NCBI GenBank assembly: GCA_048941285.1
Contig: JBHLNS010000008.1
Location: forward strand, 30,009-94,008
Source: Promethearchaeota archaeon
GTDB taxonomy: Archaea; Asgardarchaeota; Lokiarchaeia; Sigyniarchaeales; SOKP01
Reading direction: 5' to 3'
Length of the DNA stretch: 64,000 nucleotides
Positions 14 to 25,812 of this stretch are shown in pieces. The notes beneath the pieces are model-generated. The model worked only from the letters and a program-made list of their open reading frames with translations, searched no databases and was not told where the DNA came from. The translations under genes were made by a program, and so were the position numbers. The first letter of the stretch is position 1; each line of letters begins with the position of its first letter.

Positions 14-1468
14 TCACGACTTTTCCAAATGGAATATACCTGAAATAATTGATAAAATAGCTCCTACTAATAGGAGTAATCCCATTACAAAACTATTGGC
101 ATTACCAAAGTCAATAAAATTATAAAACACACCTAATGACCAAATTATAAAAAACACACCAATTCCTATCAAAATACCTCCAAAAAATTTAGAAGCTCGA
201 TAAATTGCGGAGAGAATTTCTAATCTATGTATTCTACTCTCTTTATCTCTAATTTCTTTTTCTTGACTCTCTAATTCTAGTTTAAGTTTTTGTAAAATTG
301 CTCTCGAGTCATTAGTACTTGATTCAATTGATTCTTTAGCTTTACTTAATCTCTCATGTTCTGTTTCCATATGCTTTAATTTTTCAGTCAATGCTTCTAA
401 TCTTTCTTCTCGTTCAATATACTCAGTGTTTGAAGTTTCAATATCTTTTTTCAAATCTACAATTCTTTTTTCATTAGCTTCAATTAGGTTTTCCTTAGAA
501 ATAATTTGTTCAATCAAATTGTTTGCTGTATCATTTAATTCTTGTATCCTAGATTCAATTTCAATTAATTTTTGCTGTTTATCAGTTAACTGTACTTTAT
601 ATTTAGCTAGAAGTTCTTCATATGTACCTCTTTGTTTTTCCATTTCGGGAAAACCTTCTTTATATTCTTCAAGTCTTAGTTCGATCTCTTTAATCCTACT
701 CTCTTTTTTTTCAATCTGTTCGGTTAAAAGGTTCTTTTCCTCTTCCTTTGCTTCGATTTCTGAATTTGAATGTTCTAATTCAATTTTATTCTTACTAATT
801 GAGATTTTTAAAGTATCATTTTCAGCGCGTTGACTTTTCAATTTTTTCTCAAATGCTTCAGCTTCTTCTCTTTGTTTGATAAGGAGATCTTCGTTTGATT
901 GGATCTCTTGATTCAATTTCGAAATTTTATTACGAAGTTCTTCTTGAGTAGTAATTTTCTCTTTTATTGAGTCAGTAAGAACTATTAAATCCACTTGCCT
1001 TGTTTCATATGTTTTTACCAATTGTTCATTGTTTTTCAAGAGTTCCATATATTCTTGTTCGAGATTGTCTTTACTTTCTGAGGTAATTTTTAATCTCTCT
1101 TCTAGATTTCCCATTTCTTCATTTTTACGATTATATTTATCCTCAAGCTGTTTAATGGTTTCTTCAATCGCACCAAGATATTCTTCTTTGTCATCAATCT
1201 TTTTTTGAATAGTATCTAGATTTTTTTGAGCTTCTTTTATTTCGTCACTTATCTCTTCAAGAGGTTTCTTCTCACTCTCTTTTTTTTCAGCAGCTTCTCC
1301 GTTTGTTATAGTTTCTGATATGTCTTCAATGCTATCTTCAAATTTTCTTAATTTTTTATCAATCATATCTCTCGAGTTTTTAGCTTTCGATAAATATTCC
1401 TTATCTACTCTATCAACTTCCCTTTCCGATTTACTTTCCTTCTCTTCTCCTTTGAACTCGTCAGTCAT
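14..1468 (-). CDS. Long coiled-coil protein with C-terminal membrane hairpin anchor
   Basis: 484-aa ORF. About 420 aa are uninterrupted E/K/L/I/Q-rich heptad-like sequence (e.g. LEERLKITSESKDNLEQEYMELLKNNEQL). Two hydrophobic helices follow at the C-terminus (FFGGILIGIGVFFIIWSLGVFY and MGLLLLVGAILSIISGIF). No enzymatic motif recognised. Confidence 0.65.
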   Translation of the reverse strand: MTDEFKGEEKESKSEREVDRVDKEYLSKAKNSRDMIDKKLRKFEDSIEDISETITNGEAAEKKESEKKPLEEISDEIKEAQKNLDTIQKKIDDKEEYLGAIEETIKQLEDKYNRKNEEMGNLEERLKITSESKDNLEQEYMELLKNNEQLVKTYETRQVDLIVLTDSIKEKITTQEELRNKISKLNQEIQSNEDLLIKQREEAEAFEKKLKSQRAENDTLKISISKNKIELEHSNSEIEAKEEEKNLLTEQIEKKESRIKEIELRLEEYKEGFPEMEKQRGTYEELLAKYKVQLTDKQQKLIEIESRIQELNDTANNLIEQIISKENLIEANEKRIVDLKKDIETSNTEYIEREERLEALTEKLKHMETEHERLSKAKESIESSTNDSRAILQKLKLELESQEKEIRDKESRIHRLEILSAIYRASKFFGGILIGIGVFFIIWSLGVFYNFIDFGNANSFVMGLLLLVGAILSIISGIFHLEKS

Positions 1469-1893
1469 TTTATGAATATTGGATTATAATAATTTATGTT
1501 TCATATAGAATAAGAAAACGAATATTTAATTAATTTCTGCAAAAATAAAATTTTTGTTTAAACAAGTGTCGATTTAAATAATAATTTAAATAACCAATCA
1601 TGAAATCATACACTTCTTAAAACTACCTTATGAAATATTAAAATTATAGATATTTAAATTTTGATTTTTCTTTTTTTTTGTTTTGATTTAAGGATAAAAT
1701 TAATGAATAAATTTATATACGATCATGGGTTAGATGATAATTTTGATATTCCTAATAAATATAATGATTAACTTTAGGTTATTTTTTTATTTTAACCAGA
1801 TTAAAAGATGTAATGTGGTATTTATCTAAGAGTAGCTTTTAAAATATAAGTGATTTCTGTCTTGAATTGTTTTAAAACTGCTAATTGAAGAAA

Positions 1894-2868
1894 TTATGAT
1901 TTATTTTTTCTCATAAATAATAACACCTCATCATATGAAGTATTAGGCATAGGCCCAAAAGATGCAACTTTTAAAGCACCAATTGCATTTGCAAACGTGG
2001 CAATATCTTTAAGTGCCCAACCCGCTAAATATCCTATAATAAATGCACCTCCAAAGCAATCTCCTGCGCCTGTAGGGTCTTTTTCCACAGCTTTAAAACC
2101 TTTTACCTTTAAACCTTCAAATTTCTCTGAACTAAAAACTGTACATCCCTCACTTCCTTGTTTTAATACCACAATTTTTGGCCCCATCTCAAGTAATTTT
2201 TGGCATGATTCCTTAGATCCCTTCATACCTGCTAAATTTTCAGCTTCTTCTCCACTTGGTAGTAAAATTTCCGTTTTTTCTAAAATAGGTTTACTGATCT
2301 TTAAAATCGTTTTTAAATCTAGCATTTCAGCCCTAAGATTAGGATCAAATGATACTATTACATTTGGATTATTTTCTTTTGCTATTTTTATTGCTTTATA
2401 ACATGCATCTCGTGATTTATCACTAATAGAAAGAGCACTACCCATTATATGGAGGTTCTTTATATTCTTAAAATATTCTTTTTTTATATCCGATACTGAT
2501 GTTTCTCCAGCAGCTCCTTGCGAGAAAATAAATTTACGAGAACCATCTGAATTATATTGGTTAAAAGCGATTCCTGTAGTTAGATCATTGGTAATTCTGA
2601 TTTGAGAAGTATCCACATTGTCATAATATAATTTTTTCATAATACAATGTCCAAACTCATCATTTCCTATAACCCCAATAAATCCAGTAGATAAATTAAA
2701 TGGTTTTCCCATTCTAGCTGCAGTGTCAATAAATATTGCAGGTGCTCCACTTGGGAAAGGGCCTCTATAAATTTCTCCAATCTCCCCATGTTGGGCATCT
2801 TTTTTCTCTCGCATTATTTCTACTAACAATTCTCCAAGTGAAATAATATCAGGATATTTCGTCATCAT
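1894..2868 (-). CDS. PfkB-family carbohydrate kinase (ribokinase/fructokinase/KDG-kinase-like)
   Basis: 324 aa. N-terminal glycine-rich region and C-terminal PfkB signature DPTGAGDCFGGAFIIGYLAG. Overall length and layout are typical of ribokinase-like sugar kinases. Confidence 0.85.
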   Translation of the reverse strand: MMTKYPDIISLGELLVEIMREKKDAQHGEIGEIYRGPFPSGAPAIFIDTAARMGKPFNLSTGFIGVIGNDEFGHCIMKKLYYDNVDTSQIRITNDLTTGIAFNQYNSDGSRKFIFSQGAAGETSVSDIKKEYFKNIKNLHIMGSALSISDKSRDACYKAIKIAKENNPNVIVSFDPNLRAEMLDLKTILKISKPILEKTEILLPSGEEAENLAGMKGSKESCQKLLEMGPKIVVLKQGSEGCTVFSSEKFEGLKVKGFKAVEKDPTGAGDCFGGAFIIGYLAGWALKDIATFANAIGALKVASFGPMPNTSYDEVLLFMRKNKS

Positions 2869-2976
2869 AATTTAGTAATCTCTTTTCTAGCAGATTTTTA
2901 TTATAAACTAATTTGGATTTGAAAAAATTAGTTTCTATAAGATTTCGAATATAATATTTCTAAGTTGAAAAAGATG

Positions 2977-3891
2977 TCATTTTATAAATTTCTGTTTAAA
3001 TGATTCGATAGTACTTGATATTTCATTAATGTGAATTTTTAATTCCTTTGGATGAATTTCTTTTAATTTATCTAGATTTTCTATAATTTCCTTCAATTCA
3101 TCTATCCAAAGATTCATAAGAATTTCTTTTTCTTTGTTTTTACAAGCTAATTTTATTTCATCATTTATCCATTCTTTTGCGCTTTCTTTTATCTGTTTTT
3201 TTTGAACATCAAGGGTGATTTTTACTAAATCTTGTTCATTTTTTAAGCTCTCTAACATGAGTTCTAGATTATTCTTAAACTCTGTGTTTTCTTCATTATA
3301 TTTTTTAATTATATCTCGTAGAACTTCTTCTTTAATACCAAACTCTTCCCTGACATGATTAACCTTTGTAGCAAATTCTTCACTCAAATTGTTGATTTTT
3401 CCTATGATTGATTCTATGTGATTTTTAAAATTAGTTATATGTTTATCTAACTTTTGGTCAACCGTCATAAATTTATTTTCTATCTCTAAATTAAGTGTTT
3501 TAAAGTTAGTCTCTAGTTTATTTGAAAGTGATGTGAATTTATCTTTTAATTCACTTTCAAACAAGTTTGTTGAATCCTCGATTATCTTGGTTGTTGAAGT
3601 TTCTTGTTTTTCTAGGTTTTGCTTTTGTTGCGTGAGCTGTTCTTTTGTATATTGTTCTAATTTATTGATTTGGTCACTCGATTTCGCTTCAAGAGCATCA
3701 ACTTTTTCATTTAGACCTTGATCAAGTTTATTCAACCGATTAGATAATTTTTTTTCTAAATTGTTTATTTGTTCATTTGTTTTTTGCTCTGATTTTTTTA
3801 TCTGTTCATTAATTTTGTTATCTAGCTTGCTAAGTAGTTCTTTTAATTTCTGGAATTCCTTTAAAGATATTTCTTCAGATATTTTGTTCAC
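2977..3891 (-). CDS. Coiled-coil protein, function unknown
   Basis: 304 aa, almost entirely K/E/L/N/Q-rich helical heptad-like sequence. It lies 60 nt downstream of the GTPase gene on the same strand. Confidence 0.6.
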   Translation of the reverse strand: MNKISEEISLKEFQKLKELLSKLDNKINEQIKKSEQKTNEQINNLEKKLSNRLNKLDQGLNEKVDALEAKSSDQINKLEQYTKEQLTQQKQNLEKQETSTTKIIEDSTNLFESELKDKFTSLSNKLETNFKTLNLEIENKFMTVDQKLDKHITNFKNHIESIIGKINNLSEEFATKVNHVREEFGIKEEVLRDIIKKYNEENTEFKNNLELMLESLKNEQDLVKITLDVQKKQIKESAKEWINDEIKLACKNKEKEILMNLWIDELKEIIENLDKLKEIHPKELKIHINEISSTIESFKQKFIK

Positions 3892-3950
3892 CTTTTTTCA
3901 TCATTAATTCTTCAATTATATTTATTTTGTTTAATAAACAAAAAATATAC

Positions 3951-4955
3951 TTAATCAAATTGAAATTGTTCCTCTTTTGTTTTTAAGATTATTTTCACCA
4001 ATTCAAATTCTTCTCTTTTTAATTTTTCAATTATTTCAATATTGTTTTCAAAGTCTTTTTTAGCTATAATTAAAAGCTCTCTAAGGTTGTAAATTAAATC
4101 ATTAACTGATTTAGAGTAAGTTCTTTTTAATTTCATTATAGTTTTACTAAGTTCAGATAAATTAATCAAAAATGTATCAATAATATCGAGTTTTTGAATC
4201 GAGTTGTTTTCTAACTCTTTTTTTAGAAAGTCGTAGAATTTCAATTCTTTAGTTTCTTTTTCCTCAATACTAACTTCTTTGATTTTTGGTGATATTTCCT
4301 GCTTTTTTAGTATTACATCTAAATTATTTAAAGTTACTAATTCAGTTTTTAATTGTTTTTCGTTTTTATTGATTGATTTCAAAAATCCTGAAGCTGTATT
4401 ATTCTGAACAATATCAGGATATAAGATTTCTGCTTTTCGTAAAAAAGTATAAACTAATAATTCAAAAGAATCATTAATATTTTTGCCTGTTTTAGCAGAT
4501 ACGAATACTAAATTATCATTCTTAGTTAAAAAATTAGTGAGATTAGTTTTAATCTGTTTGTCATTGGTGACTAGATCCAATTTATTACCGATAAAAAGTC
4601 TTAAAACATCCTCAGAATGATAATTTACATTTTCTAAGAACTCATCTCTTAGGTGTTTTAAAGTTTCTTTTGGTTTTGTTAAATCGAAAACTAAAAGCAC
4701 GATATCGATATTTTTATATAATGCGGGATTAAAGGGATTAAACGACCTTTGACCTCCTATATCCCATATCGAAAGCAAAACTCTTATTATATTTCCATTA
4801 TCTTTCATAACATATTCTTTTTTAGTAGTTTCACTACCAATTGTTGGTAAATATTGATCGGGAAATTGACGCCCCATAAACGCGTTTATAATTGAAGTTT
4901 TCCCAACATCTCCTTCTCCGAGAACAACCAGTTTTAAATTTATAGTATTATCCAA
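3951..4955 (-). CDS. Rab/Ras-like small GTPase with ~160-aa C-terminal helical/coiled-coil extension
   Basis: G1 GEGDVGKTS, G2-region PTIG, G3 WDIGGQ, G4 GNKLDL, G5 SAKTGKNI. After about aa 175 comes a long K/E/L/I-rich helical tail. There is no C-terminal Cys lipidation motif (ends EEQFQFD). Confidence 0.85.
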   Translation of the reverse strand: MDNTINLKLVVLGEGDVGKTSIINAFMGRQFPDQYLPTIGSETTKKEYVMKDNGNIIRVLLSIWDIGGQRSFNPFNPALYKNIDIVLLVFDLTKPKETLKHLRDEFLENVNYHSEDVLRLFIGNKLDLVTNDKQIKTNLTNFLTKNDNLVFVSAKTGKNINDSFELLVYTFLRKAEILYPDIVQNNTASGFLKSINKNEKQLKTELVTLNNLDVILKKQEISPKIKEVSIEEKETKELKFYDFLKKELENNSIQKLDIIDTFLINLSELSKTIMKLKRTYSKSVNDLIYNLRELLIIAKKDFENNIEIIEKLKREEFELVKIILKTKEEQFQFD

Positions 4956-5276: not shown

Positions 5277-6314
5277 ATGGGATTAAGAACAAATATAACA
5301 GAAATGTTTGGAATTAAGCATCCAATAATTGCAGCTCCTATGGGACCATTTTATACAAAAGAATTGACGGTAGCTGTTTCTGAAGCAGGAGGATTAGGTG
5401 TATTAAGCCATACTAACCTATTTGGGAAAAGTAGCTTAGAAGAAATGAAATCTGATATGGAATATGTAGTTGAACATACAGATAAACCTTTTGGATTTAA
5501 TATTAGAACTTCTAGATTACAACTAGATGCGCCGGGACTTTGTCGAGGGATTTCAAGGTTCATTATGGAGAATCCTAAAATAAAAGAACAATGTCTTTAT
5601 GCCGTAACTAGTGCAGGTTCTCCAAGAACATTACCAAAAGCAAAAACCTATCAGAAATTGAAAGAAAGTGGATCCAATATTAAGCACTTTCATGTTGCAC
5701 CAGCCTTATGGCTTGCTGACAAATGTGTGGAATCCGGTGTTGATGGAATGGTTATTACTGGATGGGAAGGTGGAGGGCATCAAAGTTATGAAAAAATTAG
5801 TTCCTTAGTTCTATTGCAGCAAGTCACAAGAAAACATCCAAATACTCCAATAATAGCATGTGGAGGATTTTCTAGTGGAGAAGGATTAGCATCAGCCCTA
5901 GCTATGGGCGCAGGAGCTATAGCGATGGGTTCAAGATTTATTGCTTCAAAAGAAAGTGAATTCCATGAAAAGTATAAAAATATTATCCCTCCATCAAAAG
6001 CCGATGATACCTTATGGGTTACTGGTGTTCTTGGGCCAATTCGCCTTTGGAAAAATAATTACTCTTTACATCATGGAGTTGTGAAAAGCAAAGAGGAAAA
6101 AATGGCTCAAGAAGCACAGATAACACCAGAAATGGCTATGGAAGATCAAAAACATTATGAAATGACCTATAAAGGTAATATTGAAGATGGAGCTGTTTTA
6201 TTAGGCCAGAGTATTGGCTTAATTAATTCTGTAGATAGTGTTCAAGACATTATAGCATCTATTGTTAGGGATGCTGAAAAAAGATTAAAAGAGGCAAATA
6301 GCTGTATTGTATAA
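5277..6314 (+). CDS. Nitronate monooxygenase / FabK-like FMN-dependent oxidoreductase (NMO family)
   Basis: The N-terminus FGIKHPIIAAPMG and the later GWEGGGH, GGFSSGEG and GAIAMGSRF segments match the TIM-barrel NMO/2-nitropropane dioxygenase pattern. Confidence 0.8.
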   Translation: MGLRTNITEMFGIKHPIIAAPMGPFYTKELTVAVSEAGGLGVLSHTNLFGKSSLEEMKSDMEYVVEHTDKPFGFNIRTSRLQLDAPGLCRGISRFIMENPKIKEQCLYAVTSAGSPRTLPKAKTYQKLKESGSNIKHFHVAPALWLADKCVESGVDGMVITGWEGGGHQSYEKISSLVLLQQVTRKHPNTPIIACGGFSSGEGLASALAMGAGAIAMGSRFIASKESEFHEKYKNIIPPSKADDTLWVTGVLGPIRLWKNNYSLHHGVVKSKEEKMAQEAQITPEMAMEDQKHYEMTYKGNIEDGAVLLGQSIGLINSVDSVQDIIASIVRDAEKRLKEANSCIV

Positions 6315-6516: not shown

Positions 6517-6765
6517 ATGGAGTTGTTTGTTATGGGTGAGTATGATGATGAGGATTATGTTTATTGTGAAAATTGCGAGAAAGAAATACTCCAAGATAAC
6601 GCAATTTATGTAGGAGGGAAACCTTATTGTAAAAACTGTTATCGTGATGCTGAGGAATATGAGACAATTGATGTATATAATGATGAGGAAGATGATAATG
6701 AGGAAGATGATGATGATGATGATGATGACGATGAAGATGATGATGACGAGGACGATTATGATTAA
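6517..6765 (+). CDS. Small zinc-ribbon protein with poly-Asp/Glu tail
   Basis: 82 aa. CENC-x19-CKNC four-cysteine ribbon followed by DEEDDNEEDDDDDDDDDEDDDDEDDYD. Confidence 0.6.
   Translation: MELFVMGEYDDEDYVYCENCEKEILQDNAIYVGGKPYCKNCYRDAEEYETIDVYNDEEDDNEEDDDDDDDDDEDDDDEDDYD
6682..6762 (+). repeat. Coding trinucleotide (GAT/GAA/GAG/GAC) repeat tract, including 7 perfect GAT units at 6706-6726
   Basis: Read directly from the sequence: gatgaggaagatgataatgaggaagat(gat)x7 gacgatgaagatgatgatgacgaggacgattatgat. It encodes the acidic tail of the 6517-6765 ORF. Confidence 0.9.
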
Positions 6766-7372: not shown

Positions 7373-8806
7373 ATGAGGGAGCCAATAGCATTAACTTGTA
7401 TAAATTGTAAGAAAACATTTGAATTTACGTTTATTAATAATATATGTCCTGAATGTAGGGGTATGTTATGGGTTGAATCTAATTTAGATAAAATTAGAGA
7501 AAATTTTACTAAAGTTAAAACAGACTACAGATTTTGGGATTATAAGTTTACTTTTCCTCCCATTGAAAACGATTTTATTATTTCATTAGGGGAAGGTGGA
7601 ACTCCCTGCAGAAGTTCAAAGCAATTTGGTAAAAAATTGGGATATAAAAATCTATATTTTAAAGATGAAACTCAAAATCCAACTAATTCTTTTAAAGATC
7701 GTGTAGCAGCATTATTAATTTCGCATGCACGGAGCTGGGGTTATGAAAAAGTAGTTTGCGCTTCTAATGGAAACCAAGGCGCTTCAATTGCTGCATATTG
7801 TTCTCTTGAGGGAATTGAATGTATGAACATTATACCTAGAGAAATTGATGCAGGTAAAAAGGCTCAAATGATCGCATATAATTCAGATTTAAAAATAGAA
7901 GGAGAAACTGTTGATGATGCTATTGATTATGTTATAAAGAATAAAAATTTTGAAAATTATTATCAATGCACTCCAGAATTAAATCCACTTACACTTGAAG
8001 CCCAAAAAACGATAGCTTATGAAATTATTAACCAGATTGATAACCCAAATTGGATTATAGTTCCAATGGGAAGTGGGGAGCTATTGGTAAGCATGTGGAA
8101 AGGATTTAATGAACTTAAACAAATAAAAATTATTGAAGAAATACCTAAATTAATAGGTGTTCAATCTGAATCCTCATCACCAATAGTAAATGAATATTTT
8201 AGCAAAGATACATCAAAAGCTAAAAAAAAGAATACTCACAAATCAATAGCATTAGGGATATTGGTTAAAAATCCAATATATAAAGATTTAGCTATAAAAT
8301 GTATAAGAGACACTGATGGAACTGTAATTGCAGTTCCCGAAGATCTAATATTAAACTCAATTGAAGAACTTATAAGGAGTGAAGGGATATTTGCAGAACC
8401 ATCATCAGCTCTAACTTTAGCTGCTTTACAATTACTTGATCAAAAATCCTTATTTAAATCTAAAGATAATATCATCTGTCTTATTACTGGAAGCGGATTA
8501 AAAGCACCATATATATTAGAAGCAATTTCATCCCAAACTAAGACAACAGGAAAAGGATCTATAATTATTACAAAACTAAAAATTTTATCTCAAATATCTC
8601 TTTCAAGTATTAAAGGTATAACTGGGACAGATATTAAGGAAATCATGGAGAATATAAGTTTAGCCGCTATTTATCAGCATCTTAAGGAATTGGAAATAAA
8701 GGGCTTAATCACAAGAAAAAAAGAAGGTAAAAATGTGTTATATTTTATATCTGATTCTGGAAAAAAAGTCTTAGATGCTCTAGATGTTTTAATTACCTTG
8801 CTTTAA
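7373..8806 (+). CDS. thrC: Threonine synthase with N-terminal zinc ribbon and C-terminal winged-helix (ArsR-like) domain
   Basis: CINC-x14-CPEC ribbon. PLP-lysine motif FKDETQNPTNSFKDR. Also NGNQGAS and GSGLKAP. The last ~80 aa (ITGTDIKEIMENISLAAIYQHLKELEIKGLITRKKEGKNVLYFISDSGKKVL) read as a wHTH. Confidence 0.85.
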   Translation: MREPIALTCINCKKTFEFTFINNICPECRGMLWVESNLDKIRENFTKVKTDYRFWDYKFTFPPIENDFIISLGEGGTPCRSSKQFGKKLGYKNLYFKDETQNPTNSFKDRVAALLISHARSWGYEKVVCASNGNQGASIAAYCSLEGIECMNIIPREIDAGKKAQMIAYNSDLKIEGETVDDAIDYVIKNKNFENYYQCTPELNPLTLEAQKTIAYEIINQIDNPNWIIVPMGSGELLVSMWKGFNELKQIKIIEEIPKLIGVQSESSSPIVNEYFSKDTSKAKKKNTHKSIALGILVKNPIYKDLAIKCIRDTDGTVIAVPEDLILNSIEELIRSEGIFAEPSSALTLAALQLLDQKSLFKSKDNIICLITGSGLKAPYILEAISSQTKTTGKGSIIITKLKILSQISLSSIKGITGTDIKEIMENISLAAIYQHLKELEIKGLITRKKEGKNVLYFISDSGKKVLDALDVLITLL

Positions 8807-9441
8807 TATTTTTCCTCTACATCCTTCCCTGTTTCCGTATAAATAAATATTTTATCAAAAACTTGAGGTAAATTAACTATAATATTTTTTCGAGCAAAAA
8901 TTGCGAACAAGATTGCTGCAGCCACTCCAAAACCGAATTGAATTGCACTATTAAAGAAAAATTCGAATATTGCCGCTGGAAATCCATATATGATAATCTC
9001 TGTTATAAGGTACCCGAAAATCATTATTAATCCTCCTAATATTACTGCAATTATGTCTCTATAATTAAATTTTAAATAATTTTTTTTTGGATTAGCAATA
9101 AAACCCACAATAAATCCTTCCAATCCTTTTATTATTAATGTAGGAAAAACATATAAAGGCGCTAAAAAAATATCTGTAATAGCAGAACCTAACCCTCCTG
9201 CAATGCCACCAATTATGGGCCCAAACAAAATACCTGAAATCATAACTCCAATATCCCCAAGATTAATATAACCTCCAGTTGCAGGGATCGTCAAAGGCAC
9301 AATGAAGGTTAATAGACACGTTAAAGCTGTAAAAATAGCAATCATTGAAATTAATAATGCATTATTAGGTATAAAATAACCATATAGGCCTCTTTGATTA
9401 AAAGAACTTTTACTTCTTACAATCTTACTTTTTACACCCAT
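8803..9441 (-). CDS. ECF-transporter S-component-like integral membrane protein
   Basis: 212 aa with about 6 hydrophobic helices. The glycine-rich segment GGYINLGDIGVMISGILFGPIIGGIAGGLGSAITD is typical of ECF substrate-capture subunits. Substrate unknown. Confidence 0.6.
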   Translation of the reverse strand: MGVKSKIVRSKSSFNQRGLYGYFIPNNALLISMIAIFTALTCLLTFIVPLTIPATGGYINLGDIGVMISGILFGPIIGGIAGGLGSAITDIFLAPLYVFPTLIIKGLEGFIVGFIANPKKNYLKFNYRDIIAVILGGLIMIFGYLITEIIIYGFPAAIFEFFFNSAIQFGFGVAAAILFAIFARKNIIVNLPQVFDKIFIYTETGKDVEEKY

Positions 9442-9461
9442 CTTTTCTCATTTCATTAATG

Positions 9462-9874: not shown

Positions 9875-10834
9875 TTAGAAGTTGGAATATACCATAAATT
9901 TATCTCCGGAGCCTAAACTGTAAAGTTCGAATTTACCTCCTCGTTTGGTTTCACAAAACATTTGGATCAAAGGGAATAGGTAAATTTGTGTAGTTACTTG
10001 TGAATCTTTATCTTTAGTATATGTTCTGTAGTCGCTGTTTGCAGCATTTATAGTCTTTTTAATATTTTTATTCCAGTATCCTAATGAGGGTTCTGCTTTT
10101 GATTCTAATTCTTTAAAATCACTAAATTTTATACCTTCCACTTCTTCAATCATCTTGTGGAGATCTTCCCCTATTTCTTTCTCATATTTCGTTTGTGCAC
10201 TTGAATGAAGTATAGGGACACCGGTAACGACAGTTTGAAAAGGTACAGGTAGTTCCTCATATTTATAAAGGTTTTTATGGCCTCCACATTCTTTACACTG
10301 CTCGGTTCTGTTTCCAGTACCATAACAAGCCCCACAAGGGTAAGAAAACACTTTTTTCTCTTTTTTTTGTTCTTGGCCAACTAATACTGTAAGATTTTCT
10401 TCAATTTTACCAGTTCCTTTACAAGTTTTGCATTTCTCTTCAATATATCCTTTGCCTCTACAGTTTTTACAAACTACAGCTTGTAGTGATTCAAACTGAG
10501 GTAATATCTCATCTCCTTTCCATTCATCCTTATTTATTTTTCCAGTACCTTTAAATGAATAGAATTGTACTCTTCCTACCCTAGGAGCAGTTATAGTATT
10601 TTCCTCTTTTCCCTTTGGTACTGGACCAAGTGACTTTTTTACTGCAAAATAAATTGCTGCTTCCTTATTAGTATCTTTTACGTATTCAGCAGCACTTATA
10701 GCATCTAACGAAAAAACTGCTCCTTTTGTTCCAAATTGTTTTTCCATCTTTTTCCTATCTGTCCTAGCCGCTTTTTGTTTCCATTTCTCAAAAATATCAT
10801 CTAAATTAGGTGTTTTTATTCTCACATCAGGCAT
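9875..10834 (-). CDS. Protein with DnaJ-type cysteine-rich (CxxCxGxG) zinc-finger module, no J domain
   Basis: 319 aa. Four knuckles: CKNCRGKG, CKTCKGTG, CGACYGTG, CKECGGH (aa 122-186). The flanking N- and C-terminal domains are unrecognised. Confidence 0.6.
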   Translation of the reverse strand: MPDVRIKTPNLDDIFEKWKQKAARTDRKKMEKQFGTKGAVFSLDAISAAEYVKDTNKEAAIYFAVKKSLGPVPKGKEENTITAPRVGRVQFYSFKGTGKINKDEWKGDEILPQFESLQAVVCKNCRGKGYIEEKCKTCKGTGKIEENLTVLVGQEQKKEKKVFSYPCGACYGTGNRTEQCKECGGHKNLYKYEELPVPFQTVVTGVPILHSSAQTKYEKEIGEDLHKMIEEVEGIKFSDFKELESKAEPSLGYWNKNIKKTINAANSDYRTYTKDKDSQVTTQIYLFPLIQMFCETKRGGKFELYSLGSGDKFMVYSNF

Positions 10835-10982
10835 GATTTCTCATTTTTTTTTTTTTAAAATATTGCGTTAACTTTATTTAATTGATTTAGAATTATAAAA
10901 ATATAAAATAGAATAATTTATAATCTTTATATAGAAGATAAATAAAATATAAAACAAATTTAAGAGAAAAGTCGATAATAAA

Positions 10983-11144
10983 ATGTCTGCTGAAGAACGT
11001 CAATCAGTTGAATACTTCTTACAATGGATACAACAGGGCGGATTGGGCCAATGGTTGGAGCATTTCTTAAATCAGGGCGATGAAACAAAACTTAGACAGA
11101 TAAAAGAAGTTTATGACAAAATAAAACATGTTTTTGGTTTTTAA
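10983..11144 (+). CDS. Possible small helical protein (53 aa), not in the supplied ORF track
   Basis: My own translation: MSAEERQSVEYFLQWIQQGGLGQWLEHFLNQGDETKLRQIKEVYDKIKHVFGF. It is locally more GC-rich than the surrounding intergenic DNA. No homology recognised. Confidence 0.35.
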   Translation: MSAEERQSVEYFLQWIQQGGLGQWLEHFLNQGDETKLRQIKEVYDKIKHVFGF

Positions 11145-11272
11145 TTTTTAATTTATTTTTATTCTCTAATTTTTATATACTATTTGGGCCTTCTTATTTG
11201 AAAATTAGAAAATTTGATTTGGTCTTTTTAATTTTATTTTATTAGTAGATAATTGCTAAAATGGTTTCGTAA

Positions 11273-13939
11273 TTGAGTGTTAACTTAAGGAATTTCTTTA
11301 TAGTATTTGATAGAAATCGTGAACATAAGAAAGATCTGTTATTTAATGTTAATTTCTTTTATTTAAAATCATTTAAGAAAAAGAAATTTGCATTTTCTTA
11401 CATAAAAGAACCATTTTTCAAGGGAACGGTAATTTTTGGGCCAGATTTTAAAAATAGAATACGTCCTCTAAATTTTAGTAAAATTGAGAAAGAAGGAAGT
11501 TCACAACCAATTAACCCGAGATTACTTAAAAAGTTCATTTTATCAGACAAAAATAAATTTATTGCTTTTTCGAGTCAAACTTCTTCTCAAGATGTTTCAC
11601 CTATCAAAGAAATGCTACAGAATTTTCAATATGATACAGATAAGATTATTAATTTAACCTTATGTAATTCATGTATGGAAAAGAACACCTTTACATTATT
11701 AAATGAAAATCTTCAAATTAAATCCTACAAAGATCAAATTATTTGTTCTGATTGTGCTTATGAGACTGTTTTAAATAGAATCAAGCTAGCAGGGCTTATT
11801 TCTCAAGAGAAAGTCAGTCCTAAATTAAAGAACTTTTTAATGCACTTAATACTCAAATTTAGGGATATTAGGAAGGTATTGGAAGCATTTAAAGCAGATT
11901 TCAATCCCGTTCGATCTCCTGAGATAACTCTTTATGATATTGAAAAAACTCCTCTAATAAGTAAAAAATTTCTTAATCAAGCAATAGAAGGTCTAGATAT
12001 TCCTTTATCTTTTAAAGATATATTGAAAGGATTAAAACTAATTAATTTACTGCCAATCCAAGCAATTTCTATCGAACAAGGCTTATTAACAAGACGAAAC
12101 AATCAATTAATTATGGCTCCTACCAGTGGAGGTAAAACATTAATAGGAGAATTAGCTGGAATTTCAAGGGTTTTAAATGAAAAAACCAAAAAGATGTTAT
12201 ATTTAGTACCAATTGTTGCTTTAGCTAATATTAGAACTGAAGAGTTTAAAGAAAAATATAAATCAATTAAACTGAAAGTTATCAAAAGAGTTGGAGAATC
12301 ATTATTTGAGAAAAAAGAAGATGATGACATTAAAGATTTAGCGAATTCACATATTATTATTGCAACATATGAAGCAATTGATTACATATTAAGAAGTGGG
12401 AATAAAGATCTATTAGGAAAAATTGGCACAATCGTAATTGATGAAATTCAAACATTAATTGATCCAGATAGAGGATTTATATTAGATGGTTTAATCGCTA
12501 GGTTAAAAACTCAATACCAATCTCAATTTCTATATTTAAGCGCAACATTAGGAGAACCAGAGTTTTTGGCGAAAAAATTGAATTGTGATCTAATAAAATA
12601 TAATGATCGTCCTGTTCCAGTTGAGCGTCATTTATTACTTTGTTTGAATGAAGCCCAGAAACTAAAATTTATCTCATTATTAATGAAAAGTTCTTATTCA
12701 AAGAAATCTAAATACGGGTTCAAAGGTCAATCAATAGTTTTTACAAATACTCGAAAAAAGTGTGAATCGATAACATCCTATTTGCAATTAAAAAGCCTTA
12801 ATGTGGCAGCTTATCATTCAGGTTTAACAAATGATGAAAGAAAAATTATTGAAGATGAATTTCAATCGCAGAAGTTGGCAGGAGTAGTAGCTACCGCAGC
12901 ATTAGCAGCAGGGGTTGATCTTCCAGCTAGGCAAGTAATATTTGAATCTTTAGCAATGGGGATAAATTGGTTAACAGTTGCAGAATTTGAACAGATGCTT
13001 GGACGAAGTGGTAGATTAAAAAAACATGAAAAGGGTTTAGCTTATATCTTAGTAGAACCTGGAAAGATATATTCACCTAAAATGAAAAATACTGAAGAAA
13101 ATATAGCTATAAAATTATTAAATGGAAGAATCAAAGATTATGAGCTAATACCTAATGAGGATAGATCTCAGACTGAAATTTTAGCATATATTTCTATGTA
13201 TAATGAGTGGATTCCAAAAAAAATGGTATTTAATTTTTATAATCATCTAATAAATGAACATTTTAATTTAGAGGAAGTTTTAAAGAAATTAATATCTCTT
13301 AATTTAGTTCGAATAAAGGAAGATCTGACAGTTAAAACAACGCGATTAGGAAGAGCAATTGCTAATTCATTTTTAAGTGTTGATGATAGTCTTATAATCA
13401 TTGAGAAATTACAAAGTAAATCAAAAACTCCTTTAGATATTGCTTTAGATATAGAATCTTTAAGAAATGTATACATATCAAAAAATATTGTTGCGGATTT
13501 ATCAAAAAATGTAAATATGAAATATTTTTCAAATAATCTCTTTAGTGCTAGTGTTTTATCTCTAATGAATGCGGAATATGTAAAAAAGAGAAAATCATTT
13601 TCCCGTGATTTTATTGATTTTATAATGAAATTAACTAATGATATATTCAATTGCAATTGTAAAGATAATCCATATTGCGATTGTGGGCGTTTAAATTTAG
13701 AAAAGCTAATCCTTGACTTAAGGATCACCCATAACATGACTATTGAAGAGATTTCTAATTATTTATTAGAAGAATATAAAATCATGGTTTTTAAAGGGGA
13801 TCTTATTGATTATTTAGAGAGTTTAATCTATAGTTTGGAAAGCATTAAAAACATCGCAGAAGGTATATCTAATTTAGATGAAGATTTCAATAACGAAATT
13901 AAAGAAATTCCTAACTTGATTGAGAGCATTAAATATTAA
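11273..13939 (+). CDS. Archaeal superfamily-2 DEAD/DEAH-box helicase with N-terminal zinc-ribbon region
   Basis: Motif I MAPTSGGKT, motif II VIDEIQ, motif III LSATL, AAGVDLPARQVIF, motif VI QMLGRSGR. N-terminal CNSC...CSDC and a C-terminal Cys cluster CNCKDNPYCDCG. The predicted start is TTG and there is no ATG in the first ~110 codons, so the start is uncertain. Confidence 0.8.
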   Translation: MSVNLRNFFIVFDRNREHKKDLLFNVNFFYLKSFKKKKFAFSYIKEPFFKGTVIFGPDFKNRIRPLNFSKIEKEGSSQPINPRLLKKFILSDKNKFIAFSSQTSSQDVSPIKEMLQNFQYDTDKIINLTLCNSCMEKNTFTLLNENLQIKSYKDQIICSDCAYETVLNRIKLAGLISQEKVSPKLKNFLMHLILKFRDIRKVLEAFKADFNPVRSPEITLYDIEKTPLISKKFLNQAIEGLDIPLSFKDILKGLKLINLLPIQAISIEQGLLTRRNNQLIMAPTSGGKTLIGELAGISRVLNEKTKKMLYLVPIVALANIRTEEFKEKYKSIKLKVIKRVGESLFEKKEDDDIKDLANSHIIIATYEAIDYILRSGNKDLLGKIGTIVIDEIQTLIDPDRGFILDGLIARLKTQYQSQFLYLSATLGEPEFLAKKLNCDLIKYNDRPVPVERHLLLCLNEAQKLKFISLLMKSSYSKKSKYGFKGQSIVFTNTRKKCESITSYLQLKSLNVAAYHSGLTNDERKIIEDEFQSQKLAGVVATAALAAGVDLPARQVIFESLAMGINWLTVAEFEQMLGRSGRLKKHEKGLAYILVEPGKIYSPKMKNTEENIAIKLLNGRIKDYELIPNEDRSQTEILAYISMYNEWIPKKMVFNFYNHLINEHFNLEEVLKKLISLNLVRIKEDLTVKTTRLGRAIANSFLSVDDSLIIIEKLQSKSKTPLDIALDIESLRNVYISKNIVADLSKNVNMKYFSNNLFSASVLSLMNAEYVKKRKSFSRDFIDFIMKLTNDIFNCNCKDNPYCDCGRLNLEKLILDLRITHNMTIEEISNYLLEEYKIMVFKGDLIDYLESLIYSLESIKNIAEGISNLDEDFNNEIKEIPNLIESIKY

Positions 13940-23082: not shown

Positions 23083-25812
23083 ATGTTTAATCTTGAAGAA
23101 TTTAAGGATAGCTTAATTCTTGAAAAAGTTGATAAGCTAAATAAATACTTTTTTAAGAAAAAATCTGATAAAATATCTAAAATACTCAAAGAATTTTTAG
23201 CTTTATTAGATCAACAAGAATATGTTGTACCAATTACATATATTTTAAGTATTATAGCAGAAAAGGAAATAGAACTTATTTCTGAAGGATTAATAGAAAG
23301 AATTGAGGTTTTTTTCAACTCTGAGAATACTAAACTAAGGATTAACTCACTAATTATTATTGGATTTTTTATACAAGCAAATCCAAATTATATTAAAAAA
23401 TATTTTCAAGAATTCGTAAAATTCCTATTAGATGATTTTGAGGATGTTAGAAATAATATTCACTACTTTCTGCCAAAATTGGTTGAATTAAAACCTGAAT
23501 TAGCAAAAGATAATATAGATATCATCTTACAGAGTTTTGAAATTGAACAAAACAATGATAATCTTATTTCTTTATTAAAATTATTGCTTAAATGTGAAAT
23601 TCTTGAATTTGATCAGTTATATACTATTAAAAATATTTTAAAATCAATTCTTAACATAATTGAAATCAAAGAAAACTCTAAATTATTTAGAGAAGTAATA
23701 AATATAATAAAAAAGGTATATTCAGAGCTCGTTAAACTCGATTTGGAGAAAGAAGGTGCTGGAATAATCATAAACTTATTAGAAAATCAATTTTTAATGA
23801 AAAAAACAAATTTTACTGAAGTAGGTAGAAAAACTGGGATACAATTAAAAGACTATTTAAAGAAATTTGTAAAATCTAAGTTAAAGGATAAAAAAATCTT
23901 TTTTTATATTAAAACAAAAGAAAATTTGATATATATTTATGAATTAGAAAAAAGCAAATTAAAAAGATTCTTTGAGCAGAAAATTAAAATATCAGATGAG
24001 CTTATCAAGAAAACTTTTTCGCAAGTTATAGATAATGGCTCAGAATTAAAAATTTTTATCAAAACGTTAAATAACTTAAAATTAATTGATGGTTATTATT
24101 CTAACATTGGATTTTTTTATCCAACTATTTATATAAAGTCAATGTTATTAGAAGATTTACAAACAAATGGAGCTATAAGCATAAAAAAGTTCAATTTTCT
24201 TCCACATAATTTTATTGAAAGAATCATTAAAGATATTTCCAAGGTTACCAATCAAAAATTTTTAAGACATAAAGATAAAGAAACTTATATATCTTTAAAA
24301 AAAGTTAAAGATCAAATTAATTCTGAAGCAGCAAAAAAAAGTGTTATAGAATTACGACAATATCGTGAGATTTTATTTGATGAAGATTTCATAAAATTGA
24401 TAAAAAATATGCCTAGAGCGTTTTTATCAGAATTTCATAAAGGAACACAGTGGTTAACTAATCTAGGGTCACAAAAAATTAGTAATGAGATCCAAAATTC
24501 TAAAATAGTTGGTTATTTTAACATTTCTAAAGTATCTGATAAATTAAATATAGCAGAGCTTCTATTATTAGACGTTTTTGAACAATTTGTAGATTATAGA
24601 AGTGGGATTTGGAATAGAGAAAAAAATATCTTTTATTATTCAAAGTATTTAAAAGAAAAAATCGATCAAATTAGTTTAGTTTCTGATGAACATGAAAAAT
24701 TGCAGCAAATTGAAGTGATCTCTACAGAACTTAATATTGATAAGAATCATATTTTATCCAAAATAGATGAAAATTTACAATTGATTGCAGAAGAAATAAA
24801 ACAGAAAGATCAAATAATATTAAGTGAATACCTCCAAAAAACAGGGATGGAATTAGATGATTTTTTGACATTTATTGATGATTTAGATATTCATTACTTC
24901 AGAAAGGCGGATTTATTAATTTTTAATACTCAGAAAATTGATGAGGCAAAAAATGAAATAAAATATATGTTAATTGATAAGTCTAAATCAGAGGATTATA
25001 TACCACTAGGAACAATGAAATTTATTCAATCAACTCTGATTGAAGATTTAATGAAGGAATTACTACAAGATGGAAAGTTAAAAGGCATTTTTCATGAAGA
25101 GGAAGGAGAACTCATTTTTTATACGGAACGAGGAATCGGTAAGTTGATGCTAGAAAATAGCTTACTTTTTTCATTTCATGATTTATTTTATGGTAAGGAA
25201 TTAAATCAAGAAGAAATTGATTTATTGAAGGGAATATTTGAAGATTTAATTAAAAGTAGAGTTATCAAAGGAGATTTTGATGAGGAAACGTTAACTTTTT
25301 CTAGTGATGAAGTATTATTTGCGAAAGATTACAATATTGTTTTATCGGAATTTGAAAAAATGGTAGAAAATTATATTAAGAATTTTGAAATTGAATTCCA
25401 AAAGATCAAAAAAATTCTTATTAAGAGAGAAGAAACAATTTTTCCACAAGAGATAAAGTATATTCAAGATATTATTGACAAAATTAATGAGAAATATATT
25501 AATTGGAGAAGTGGTTTAGAAGCTTTTATACGTAGAACTAATAAAAAGTTATTAAGAGATCAAGGTATTAGCGTAAGACAATATAAAACCATTCTCTCAA
25601 AAGAAAAAAAAGAAGAAATAAAATCATTAGAGCAAGATCCCGAAGTACATGAGCTTTTAAATAAATTTAATAATTGGGTAAAAAGATATAATAAAATTGA
25701 ATTAAAATATCCAAATATAATATTTTACCAAAAAAGATTGATGAATAATCCAGAAGACAGGGAGTCTAATACTAAATTAATAGAATTATTAGATGAATTA
25801 GAGTTAAAATAG
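23083..25812 (+). CDS. Large helical protein: N-terminal HEAT/ARM-like solenoid plus repeated winged-helix-like modules, function unknown
   Basis: 909 aa, K/E/I/L-rich. The first ~220 aa show HEAT-like periodicity (NTKLRINSLIIIGFFIQANPNYIKKYFQEFVKFLLDDFEDVRNNIHYFLPKLVEL). Later segments repeat a pattern such as NGAISIKKFNFLPHNFIERII and KIVGYFNISKVSDKLNIAELLLLDVFEQFV. Confidence 0.4.
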   Translation: MFNLEEFKDSLILEKVDKLNKYFFKKKSDKISKILKEFLALLDQQEYVVPITYILSIIAEKEIELISEGLIERIEVFFNSENTKLRINSLIIIGFFIQANPNYIKKYFQEFVKFLLDDFEDVRNNIHYFLPKLVELKPELAKDNIDIILQSFEIEQNNDNLISLLKLLLKCEILEFDQLYTIKNILKSILNIIEIKENSKLFREVINIIKKVYSELVKLDLEKEGAGIIINLLENQFLMKKTNFTEVGRKTGIQLKDYLKKFVKSKLKDKKIFFYIKTKENLIYIYELEKSKLKRFFEQKIKISDELIKKTFSQVIDNGSELKIFIKTLNNLKLIDGYYSNIGFFYPTIYIKSMLLEDLQTNGAISIKKFNFLPHNFIERIIKDISKVTNQKFLRHKDKETYISLKKVKDQINSEAAKKSVIELRQYREILFDEDFIKLIKNMPRAFLSEFHKGTQWLTNLGSQKISNEIQNSKIVGYFNISKVSDKLNIAELLLLDVFEQFVDYRSGIWNREKNIFYYSKYLKEKIDQISLVSDEHEKLQQIEVISTELNIDKNHILSKIDENLQLIAEEIKQKDQIILSEYLQKTGMELDDFLTFIDDLDIHYFRKADLLIFNTQKIDEAKNEIKYMLIDKSKSEDYIPLGTMKFIQSTLIEDLMKELLQDGKLKGIFHEEEGELIFYTERGIGKLMLENSLLFSFHDLFYGKELNQEEIDLLKGIFEDLIKSRVIKGDFDEETLTFSSDEVLFAKDYNIVLSEFEKMVENYIKNFEIEFQKIKKILIKREETIFPQEIKYIQDIIDKINEKYINWRSGLEAFIRRTNKKLLRDQGISVRQYKTILSKEKKEEIKSLEQDPEVHELLNKFNNWVKRYNKIELKYPNIIFYQKRLMNNPEDRESNTKLIELLDELELK

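Follow-up and report, generated by a model that had tools for sequence, protein, structure and literature searches.

In eukaryotes, Rab and Arl GTPases work with coiled-coil effectors or golgin tethers. Loki-type archaea encode dozens of Rab-like GTPases that are free of a lipid anchor and whose placement and binding partners are in question (passages of PMC4917890), the lack of a lipidation motif being the rule for Loki GTPases in the available parts of PMC4917890 and PMC10933270. According to sections of the latter, the described Asgard Rab-like GTPases are either single-domain proteins or fused to roadblock or longin domains, their genes generally lie outside operons with regulators, and gene order rarely pairs a GTPase with a partner (PMC10933270). 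At the locus described here, gene order names a partner, giving two small soluble proteins with natural deletion variants that can serve as controls. Our literature search found no report of a GTPase-plus-rod module, and the accessible part of PMC11188069 likewise contains none.

Organisation of the locus

The initial annotation of the window (the whole stretch of 64,000 nucleotides of DNA analysed here) had proposed that a small GTPase and two long coiled-coil proteins, encoded on either side of a PfkB-family kinase gene, form a tether in which membrane attachment is supplied by a partner of the GTPase. All four open reading frames were confirmed, each on the minus strand (Table 1). The four genes are real, yet they belong to two units, namely the GTPase with the 304-residue protein (hereafter the partner), and the 484-residue membrane coiled coil. 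The open reading frame of the partner starts 59 bases past the GTPase stop codon. Long coiled coils account for 29 of the 3145 genes of the genome by a rough periodicity score, and this GTPase is the only one of 69 in the genome with a long coiled-coil gene directly adjacent. A scan of the locus with a sigma-70 promoter model, which is unsuited to archaea, gave matches at chance level.

Table 1. Genes and protein features at the locus (positions within the window).
Feature	Position	Strand	Remarks
NMO-family gene	5277..6314	+	Divergent; other flank of the pair's insertion point (loci L089, L091)
Rab-like small GTPase gene	3951..4955	-	334 aa, TTG start, 163-aa C-terminal extension; gene 1 of the conserved pair
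G domain	4443..4955	-	aa 1-171; G1-G5 intact; family-specific switch II FNPxNP
Short helical subdomain behind G domain	4305..4442	-	aa 172-217; retained by truncated orthologs
Flexible linker of GTPase	4251..4304	-	aa 218-235; pLDDT <50 at 220-235; lowest conservation
Two long helices of GTPase tail	3957..4250	-	aa 236-278, 284-333; read as hairpin, heptad pattern; proposed partner-binding part
Partner gene	2977..3891	-	304 aa (relatives 170-337 aa), single copy; gene 2 of the pair
Hendecad (11-residue) stalk of partner	3331..3858	-	aa 12-187, 16 repeats
Conserved head of partner	2980..3234	-	aa 220-304; helix, Pro281 kink, helix (model)
PfkB-family sugar kinase	1894..2868	-	Assigned to the older block of the 484-aa gene, outside the pair
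484-aa membrane-anchored heptad coiled coil	14..1468	-	Conserved gene of its own; APC amino-acid permease usually directly downstream
Uninterrupted heptad rod	251..1258	-	aa 71-406, 48 heptads, about 50 nm at usual rise
C-terminal two-helix membrane hairpin	35..184	-	aa 429-447, 460-478; hydropathy

A Rab-type G domain with a helical tail

The Pfam Ras family matches residues 8-169 of the GTPase (E 1.9e-30), and the G1-G5 motifs of the Ras superfamily are intact across 63 sequences. The G domain has a Rab-type fold, with Rab8 as the top Foldseek match (E 2.7e-12) and Rab32 aligned over 169 residues (VIA Z 19.9, rmsd 2.7), in fold-match lists that span residues 1-184 only. Residues K19, T38, G68, N73, K125, D127 and S153 are invariant in 63 of 63 sequences and the catalytic glutamine, Q69, is retained in 61, while the FNPxNP pattern of switch II occurs in one of the 69 GTPases of the genome. 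In the AF2 model the tail consists of three short helices at residues 187-217, a linker modelled with low confidence (220-235) and helices 236-278 and 284-333. This agrees with the helical extension described in the initial annotation, which had the extension replacing a lipidation motif; the absence of that motif is no special mark of this protein, because only 3 of the 69 small GTPases of the genome have a cysteine in the last five residues and its absence is the rule in Loki GTPases. A search for the eukaryotic Rab geranylgeranylation motif found a cysteine in the last 10 residues of none of 37 family members.

Three other identities for the tail were rejected. Pfam Roc covers residues 8-127 only, COR is unmatched and the tail is two long helices, which does not agree with a Roco (ROC-COR) protein. 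Histone families match none of 37 tails, and the two helices modelled here are 43 and 50 residues long, excluding a Rab GTPase histone; profile comparison gave a probability of 7% that the GTPase tail and the partner head are homologs.

The partner consists of a variable stalk and a fixed head

The partner is a stalk of 11-residue repeats of variable length followed by a fixed head of about 85 residues. It had initially been described as coiled coil throughout, and the downstream reading frame is indeed there, but it is not a plain heptad, being composed of sixteen 11-residue repeats and the head. Amongst 29 loci compared, stalk indels are multiples of 11 in all 14 that have internal indels, and in several genera the stalk is down to a few repeats. 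Across 490 repeats, lysine occupies positions 4 and 11 on one flank and aspartate or glutamate positions 2, 6 and 7 on the other, a charge pattern that fits parallel helix pairing. The head measures 84-87 residues in 61 of 61 sequences with the anchoring motif located (66 sequences in all), and D221, E254, L258, W262 and P281 are invariant in 63 of 63.

No membrane segment was found in either the GTPase or the partner. Foldseek returned zero matches to the partner model, a second fold search gave general long helices only (best Z 7.8), searches of PDB sequences found nothing under E 0.018, and matches in the ESM Atlas were 0.85 or lower. Two weak partner-profile matches (G265 and G266), which lie inside an HMGL-like enzyme, and seven weak matches of profile A7 outside the family, which cover stalk positions and fall short of the head's end, were discounted as general coiled-coil similarity. 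P0123 and P0124, two distant relatives, look genuine; attempts to place them in a locus were unsuccessful. Fused GTPase-partner forms were absent among 71 matches, the longest real match being 318 residues, and in a weak test for fusions all 15 tail-profile matches of at least 294 residues proved to be GTPases of 327-345 residues. An SMC/Rad50 identity, with a split ABC ATPase head and a hinge or hook, was rejected for both the 304- and 484-residue proteins: the best SMC score of 54 bits (cut-off 567) lies over coiled coil only, a P-loop is absent from both sequences, and the register of the 484-residue protein is unbroken.

The GTPase and partner genes are conserved and lost together

The two genes are adjacent and on the same strand in 103 of the 104 genomes that contain both, spanning 12 genera of one Lokiarchaeia-type family, and every one of the 104 genomes with the partner has the GTPase tail. 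The single exception to adjacency, as well as four genomes with the tail only, break at contig ends or N runs. In many loci the stop and start codons of the pair overlap or stand within 60 bases of each other. Where the partner is lost, either the GTPase is also lost or its hairpin is. Two sister genomes, G024 (99% complete) and G025, which count as one event, still have the orthologous GTPase among the same neighbouring genes, with the partner missing from an unbroken locus; this GTPase ends before the hairpin, carries a Gln-to-Lys change in G3 and has a decayed switch II as well. In a further genome (G127), a deletion remnant fuses the start of the GTPase to the last helix of the partner. 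The full GTPase profile, run against five genomes without the pair, found only general paralogs in all five. The distribution supports the conclusion that the GTPase and the 304-residue protein behave as a dedicated pair.

Contact between the GTPase and the partner

We consider it reasonably likely that the two proteins form a dedicated, lineage-specific two-gene module, a soluble complex in which the hairpin of the GTPase docks on the head of the partner and the stalk serves as a rod. Co-folding of the GTPase with the partner scored 0.58, compared with 0.00 for the best of three controls, a pass that gives no interface and hence no location of the contact (hairpin, G domain or head); of 157 solved complexes 116 attain the mark, as do 2 of 215 mismatches, and those passing at 0.60 or under comprise only 18 of the 157 solved complexes plus both passing mismatches. 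The runs share at least 91% of contacts, with a partner pLDDT of at least 81. The two proteins probably bind each other; the backing from co-folding is weak, and it joins adjacency and joint loss in favour of the partnership put forward in the initial annotation.

Rate covariation by branch, over 59 genomes and 115 branches, is 0.41 between hairpin and head and 0.40 between G domain and head, so that the hairpin is not singled out, and 0.07-0.27 between hairpin or head and parts of the 484-residue protein, with the caveat that neighbours moving together have a common history. Covariation of pairwise identities (partial r 0.82) was discarded as inflated by kinship in favour of this branch test.

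Sec2/Rabin8-type GEFs and RILP/FIP-type effectors are coiled coils that bind the switches of the G domain. The partner may similarly be a regulator or effector that acts on these switches in a nucleotide-dependent manner, the hairpin only dimerising the GTPase or raising its local concentration. The equal covariation of the G domain with the head speaks for such a protein, as do the invariant and unusual switch II and its decay together with G3 upon partner loss in G024 and G025; the co-folding pass does not place the interface elsewhere. However, the hairpin itself vanishes along with the partner, which in sequence and fold searches resembles no known Rab effector or GEF, the matches being to general long helices, and we judge this reading unlikely.

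The 484-residue membrane coiled coil belongs to a separate gene unit

In the 484-residue protein, a heptad pattern of period 3.50 runs in a single register over residues 71-406 and is followed by hydrophobic segments at 429-447 and 460-478, just as expected from its original description as a coiled coil ending in a membrane hairpin. Its build is that of a golgin-type tether in being a long parallel heptad coiled coil with a C-terminal membrane anchor, the anchor here being a hairpin of two helices instead of one membrane pass. A search for golgin homology or a GRIP/GRAB-type domain matched no golgin family among the 41 members of its family, coiled coils being hard to place by sequence; seven of them match Pfam Rod_CreS weakly (best E 4.1e-7), most members do not agree on any one family, and the ESM Atlas matches are unnamed Promethearchaeota clusters.

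This tether-like build would suit a single golgin-like tether of all three proteins, anchored by the 484-residue protein either family-wide or only where the genes are neighbours. The 484-residue gene lies at most 10 kb from the pair in 40 of the 100 genomes with both, and directly adjacent in G047. The move of the pair next to it coincides with lengthening of the partner stalk and with one burst of change in the GTPase tail and partner head on that branch, which a functional link to the 484-residue gene in that lineage could also explain, and linkage is not required for genes of one complex. However, all 40 genomes belong to a single genus (40 of its 48, against none of the 52 from other genera), the 484-residue gene is retained in 18 of the 27 genomes without the pair, and two single-contig genomes (G269 and G272), in which the tail and partner profiles are unmatched, encode relatives that share its N-terminal motif and membrane hairpin. 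Moreover, the 484-residue protein hardly changed on the branch of the pair's fast change, its steady neighbour is the APC permease (14 of 19 hairpin-bearing loci), and 425 AT-rich bases separate its gene from PfkB. We regard the golgin-like assembly as quite improbable.

Among 11 loci with the pair located elsewhere, 7 have PfkB near the 484-residue gene. Because the NMO and PfkB genes directly adjoin each other in G039 and G018, and in the window the pair stands between them, we conclude that the cluster arose by one insertion of the pair into the block of the 484-residue gene, which is why the two lie close together here. The gene-order conservation initially envisaged thus holds for the pair but not for the 484-residue gene, and the proposed role of the latter in supplying membrane attachment was not sustained, given the linkage counts, its retention without the pair and the single insertion. 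A three-part membrane-anchored tether is unsupported, whereas the GTPase-plus-rod module is supported. The 484-residue membrane rod, as the more widely retained protein, deserves separate study.

A proposed mechanism for the two-gene module

Class A lipid helices have lysine on both flanks and a wide hydrophobic face. The strict 11-residue repeat of the partner and a weak match to Pfam Apolipoprotein (E 9.5e-7) might suggest that the repeats are amphipathic lipid-binding helices of the apolipoprotein or perilipin type, by which the partner brings the GTPase to a membrane; with a score of 29.1 bits against a cut-off of 90, a narrow hydrophobic face flanked by lysine on one side and aspartate or glutamate on the other, and the repeats reduced to a few in several genera, this is highly unlikely. 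That the two genes are merely co-transcribed for one pathway without contact between their products is scarcely credible, since the hairpin is lost with the partner and co-folding controls scored 0.00, even though the co-folding pass is weak and adjacency by itself is no proof of contact.

In the two-gene module that we favour, the tail hairpin would dock onto the partner head whatever the nucleotide, and the partner stalks would pair in parallel to give a nearly straight rod, with about 26 nm of repeats here and much less in other genera. One end of the rod would carry at least two G domains, each on a flexible linker, and the conserved N-terminal helix of the partner, at the opposite end, may bind another structure. 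The hairpin would stand in for the lipid tail of Rab proteins in setting the position of the switch, but on a protein scaffold, and the unusual invariant switch II would signal to one dedicated target. The 484-residue protein would be a separate, older membrane rod linked to the APC permease.

A bolder and doubtful extension is that the module is a GTP-switched tether or ruler that arose independently of eukaryotes, in which a Rab-like switch fixed by its hairpin sits at the tip of a rod whose length changes in 11-residue steps and whose far end rests on a receptor of the membrane or cytoskeleton, which in this lineage may be the 484-residue rod. If true, this would be the first dedicated pair of a GTPase and a coiled-coil partner from Asgard archaea, and it would offer a working explanation of how Asgard Rabs without lipidation are positioned.

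Comparison with known systems

The 484-residue protein shares a long uninterrupted heptad rod with crescentin- and tropomyosin-like rods and with tail-anchored coiled coils, but unlike crescentin- and tropomyosin-like rods it ends in a two-helix membrane hairpin and is tied to an APC permease gene. The partner resembles the E-G peripheral stalk of A/V-ATPases, as set out in part of PMC3293630, in its hendecad repeat, nearly parallel helices and C-terminal head; it differs in lacking a sequence match, in lying outside an ATPase operon and in a stalk length that varies by whole repeats, and an identity as stator E/G was rejected on the absence of both sequence homology and an ATPase-operon position. 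The Rab GTPase histones of Loki archaea, from the available text of PMC11390915, likewise combine a Rab-like domain specific to Loki archaea with a helical module for interaction at the C-terminus, although theirs is a self-dimerising histone fold and here it is a pair of helices, 43 and 50 residues long, accompanied by a second gene. Asgard Rab-like proteins such as Thor-Rab and those of MK-D1 (sections of PMC10933270) also have a Rab-type G domain without a terminal cysteine, whereas the GTPase described here is distinguished by a tail with a helical hairpin, by prolines in its switch II and by a neighbour gene that is fixed.

In common with the eukaryotic Rab/Arl and golgin system, the pair associates a small GTPase with a long, putatively parallel coiled coil and has a flexible linker between G domain and anchor; it differs in that our searches found no homology, prenyl site or membrane anchor in the pair, and binding is probably via a dedicated tail. 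Since the pair is restricted to one family, it is an analogue rather than an ancestor of the eukaryotic system, and illustrates the capabilities of Asgard GTPases, not the inheritance of eukaryotes.

A Rab-like GTPase and a helical partner are inherited together

The four ORFs claimed in the initial annotation are present as described. Profile searches detected the C-terminal extension (tail) of the GTPase in 112 of the 161 genomes of the class, and its 304-aa partner, a single-copy gene, in 107 of the 400 genomes of the phylum. Leaving out weak matches before counting (G024, G025, G028 and G262 for the tail; G127, G265 and G266 for the partner) kept 108 and 104 genomes respectively, all of which belong to the family of the window's genome. 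The tail is present in all 104 partner genomes, and in 103 of them, from 12 of 13 genera, the two genes are direct neighbours on one strand and in a constant order. The sole non-adjacent case, G085, is broken between contigs where the GTPase has a repeat extension; in the four tail-only genomes, the GTPase is directly followed by an N run (G045) or the locus stops at a contig end (G110, G111 and G113). Across 41 loci, the pair is constant while flanking genes vary among genera. Source labels of relatives are mostly Promethearchaeota or Lokiarchaeota; the few Thor-, Hod- or Odinarchaeota labels were not borne out, as genome searches gave no match outside the class. One genome (G031, contamination 5%) holds two copies of the pair (L050 and L051), one apparently nearer the type of the window lineage. 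In several genera, a second GTPase-like protein of ~500 aa, comprising an N-terminal domain, an Arf/Roc-like domain, a helical part and a low-complexity tail, is encoded upstream, at a distance of two or three genes from the pair and beyond an M32 carboxypeptidase gene.

Both tail and partner are missing from 27 of the 135 genomes of the family by these counts, many of the 27 being incomplete; in five pair-less genomes that are 93-98% complete, the full GTPase profile matches general paralogs only. G024 and G025 are sister genomes, so their loss counts as one event: the GTPase ortholog is kept in the neighbourhood typical of their genus, has Lys in place of the G3 Gln and stops at profile position 219-220, just short of the hairpin formed by the two long tail helices, and the partner is gone from an unbroken locus. 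G127 retains a 134-aa remnant in which the GTPase start is fused to the last helix of the partner. In G018 and G019, an extra hairpin-like frame of 70-81 codons (E about 1e-8) lies between the pair genes and may be either a stand-alone copy or a remnant.

Coordinates of features in the window and in fetched loci
Source	Position	Strand	Feature
Window	14..1468	-	484-aa protein, membrane-anchored heptad coiled coil
Window	1894..2868	-	PfkB kinase
Window	2977..3891	-	Partner, 304 aa
Window	3951..4955	-	Rab-like GTPase, 334 aa
Window	5277..6314	+	NMO gene
Window	6517-6765		82-aa protein; small zinc-finger-like part, long acidic tail
Window	7373-8806		Threonine-synthase-like PLP enzyme, C-terminal winged-helix match
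Window	9875-10834		319-aa protein; DnaJ-type zinc-finger stretch, no J domain match; encoded close to the pair in several congeneric genomes
Window	23083-25812		909-aa ORF; hendecad-like stretch around residue 750 by periodicity score
L001	10084-11982		APC permease, just left of window start
L032 (and others)	12131-13762		~500-aa GTPase-like protein
L037	9339-10859		~500-aa GTPase-like protein
L042	6014-6226		Hairpin-like frame
L139	1945-2190		Hairpin-like frame
L047	5971-6312		Partner frame
L048	2740-3081		Partner frame
L058 (also L143, L144, L145)	10879-12378		GTPase of G083 and G085
L075 (also L076, L082, L083, L084)	7549-9456		Soluble ~620-aa protein, no Pfam match
L077	6461-7402		Heptad relative without membrane hairpin
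L078	6717-7721		Heptad relative without membrane hairpin
L081	6429-7457		Heptad relative without membrane hairpin

The GTPase is Rab-like and carries a helical tail

Motifs G1-G5 are all intact in the GTPase; K19, T38, G68, K125, D127 and S153 are invariant among 63 relatives, 61 of which retain the catalytic Gln. Switch II reads FNPxNP, a pattern present in one of the 69 small GTPases that a profile scan found in this genome. In the AF2 model (pLDDT 79.9), a Rab-type G domain leads into three short helices spanning 187-217; a linker of low confidence (220-235) then connects these to the long helices 236-278 and 284-333. Fold searches group the G domain with Rabs and are uninformative on the tail. 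By its motifs and predicted fold, the protein belongs to the Asgard Rab-like GTPases. Eukaryotic Rab, Roco and Rab-histone identities were rejected. A C-terminal Cys occurs in none of 37 relatives, and passages in two papers describe Loki GTPases as lacking it as a rule (PMC4917890, PMC10933270). The GTPase of G083 and G085 carries Asn in place of its catalytic Gln, and its hairpin is followed by a long extension of Pro/Lys/Val repeats.

Probable contact between the GTPase and its partner

Co-folding of the GTPase with the last 155 residues of the partner, using purpose-made alignments, scored 0.58 against 0.00 for the best control, with contact agreement of at least 91% and partner pLDDT of at least 81 across runs. 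Of 157 solved complexes, 116 reach the mark used, as do 2 of 215 mismatches. Since passes at 0.60 or under comprise few solved complexes (18 of 157) and both passing mismatches, the result points weakly to contact, the output giving no interface; we counted it because contact was already likely from the genomic pattern. On a tree of 59 genomes (four of 63 rows were dropped, three without a whole 484-aa gene and one a second copy), branch-rate covariation after control was 0.41 for hairpin and head (the conserved C-terminal part of the partner), 0.40 for G domain and head, 0.07-0.27 for hairpin or head with parts of the 484-aa protein and 0.75 for the two halves of the latter, where control sets vary between rows and linked genes have a common history.

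Anatomy, linkage and joint loss are directly supported for the pair. We consider it probable that the two proteins form a soluble complex, in which the hairpin would sit on the partner head, the stalks (the 11-residue repeats of the partner) would pair into a rod, flexible linkers would hold the G domains at one rod tip and the opposite tip would carry a putative dock. That the partner is instead a regulator or effector binding the switches is a less likely reading, at perhaps a third of that weight.

The 484-aa protein has a history of its own

The 484-aa protein has a single heptad register (71-406) followed by two membrane helices; SMC or Rad50 identity was rejected. Its gene is found in 121 of the 135 genomes of the family and in 11 more of the order and class, with none beyond among the 400. 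In 40 of the 100 genomes that have both, this gene and the partner gene are no more than 10 kb apart (40 of 48 in the window's genus, 0 of 52 elsewhere), separate contigs by themselves being little proof of non-linkage. None of the 11 loci of 14 kb retrieved around the 484-aa gene from unlinked genomes contains the pair, and none of the 30 pair loci retrieved from outside the main lineage of the genus, some of them short contigs, contains the 484-aa gene. Since NMO in G039 and G018 is followed by PfkB, then by one or two other genes and the 484-aa gene, and in the window the pair stands between NMO and PfkB, the clustering is, by gene order, the product of one insertion.

The initial annotation had tentatively joined GTPase, partner and 484-aa protein in one tether arrangement. 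Its GTPase-partner core is supported by the adjacency and joint loss; membership of the 484-aa protein is not supported. Although the stalk became longer, and tail and head changed fast, at the time the pair moved to the 484-aa gene, a three-part membrane tether is improbable, as linkage is nil outside the genus and the 484-aa gene is kept in 18 of 27 pair-less genomes. Two single-contig genomes (G269 and G272) encode relatives of the 484-aa protein that share its N-terminal motif and membrane hairpin, and neither the tail nor the partner is matched in them.

In 14 of the 19 loci with the membrane hairpin, drawn from three families, the 484-aa gene has an APC amino-acid permease gene as its steady neighbour, 2-90 bases downstream, and the rod may be an accessory of this permease. 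The permease beside the window, of ~630 aa, has several extra C-terminal membrane helices past the Pfam domain. In another family (f3), the soluble ~620-aa protein takes the permease's place downstream of 484-aa relatives; in G005 its gene comes after the permease. A DUF2061-type small membrane gene stands beside each of the hairpin-less relatives (313-342 aa).

The partner stalk is built from hendecads

Sixteen 11-residue repeats occupy residues 12-187 of the partner. Among 29 same-genus loci compared, in which kin share indel events, 14 carry internal indels, always in multiples of 11; 12 are free of them, and the other 3 show a two-residue difference at the start. Total length ranges from ~170 to 337 aa across relatives, and the stretch from the QD motif to the C-terminal end measures 84-87 aa in 61 of 61 sequences, a count that does not include five more without the motif by the pattern used. 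Of 61 sequences, 50 have a periodicity of 3.61-3.65. In the AF2 model, the last 155 residues make up a long helix and a short one, separated by a kink at Pro281. No membrane segment was found in 40 locus sequences (19-residue hydropathy maximum 0.65); among 69 database relatives, a single partial match has a value of 1.83. In the partner frames of L047 and L048, no ATG/GTG/TTG occurs until well into the conserved part, a hint of non-standard start codons.

Class A lipid helices typically bear Lys along both sides of a wide hydrophobic face. Because positions 1, 5 and 9 of the stalk are hydrophobic over 490 repeats, with Lys lining one side of this face and Asp/Glu the opposite side, we infer that parallel helix pairing fits the stalk better than lipid binding, and lipid-binding repeats seem quite improbable. 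A passage on the ATPase stator describes nearly parallel helices from hendecads (PMC3293630). That the two proteins make no contact at all is hardly credible.

Comparison with known systems

Full-text literature searching, with supplements, subscription papers and asCOG tables outside its scope, returned no published description of the pair; the tail architecture may already be listed somewhere. By analogy, the GTPase and its partner would work much as a Rab does with a coiled-coil partner, a likeness in working to which no homology corresponds in the searches made.
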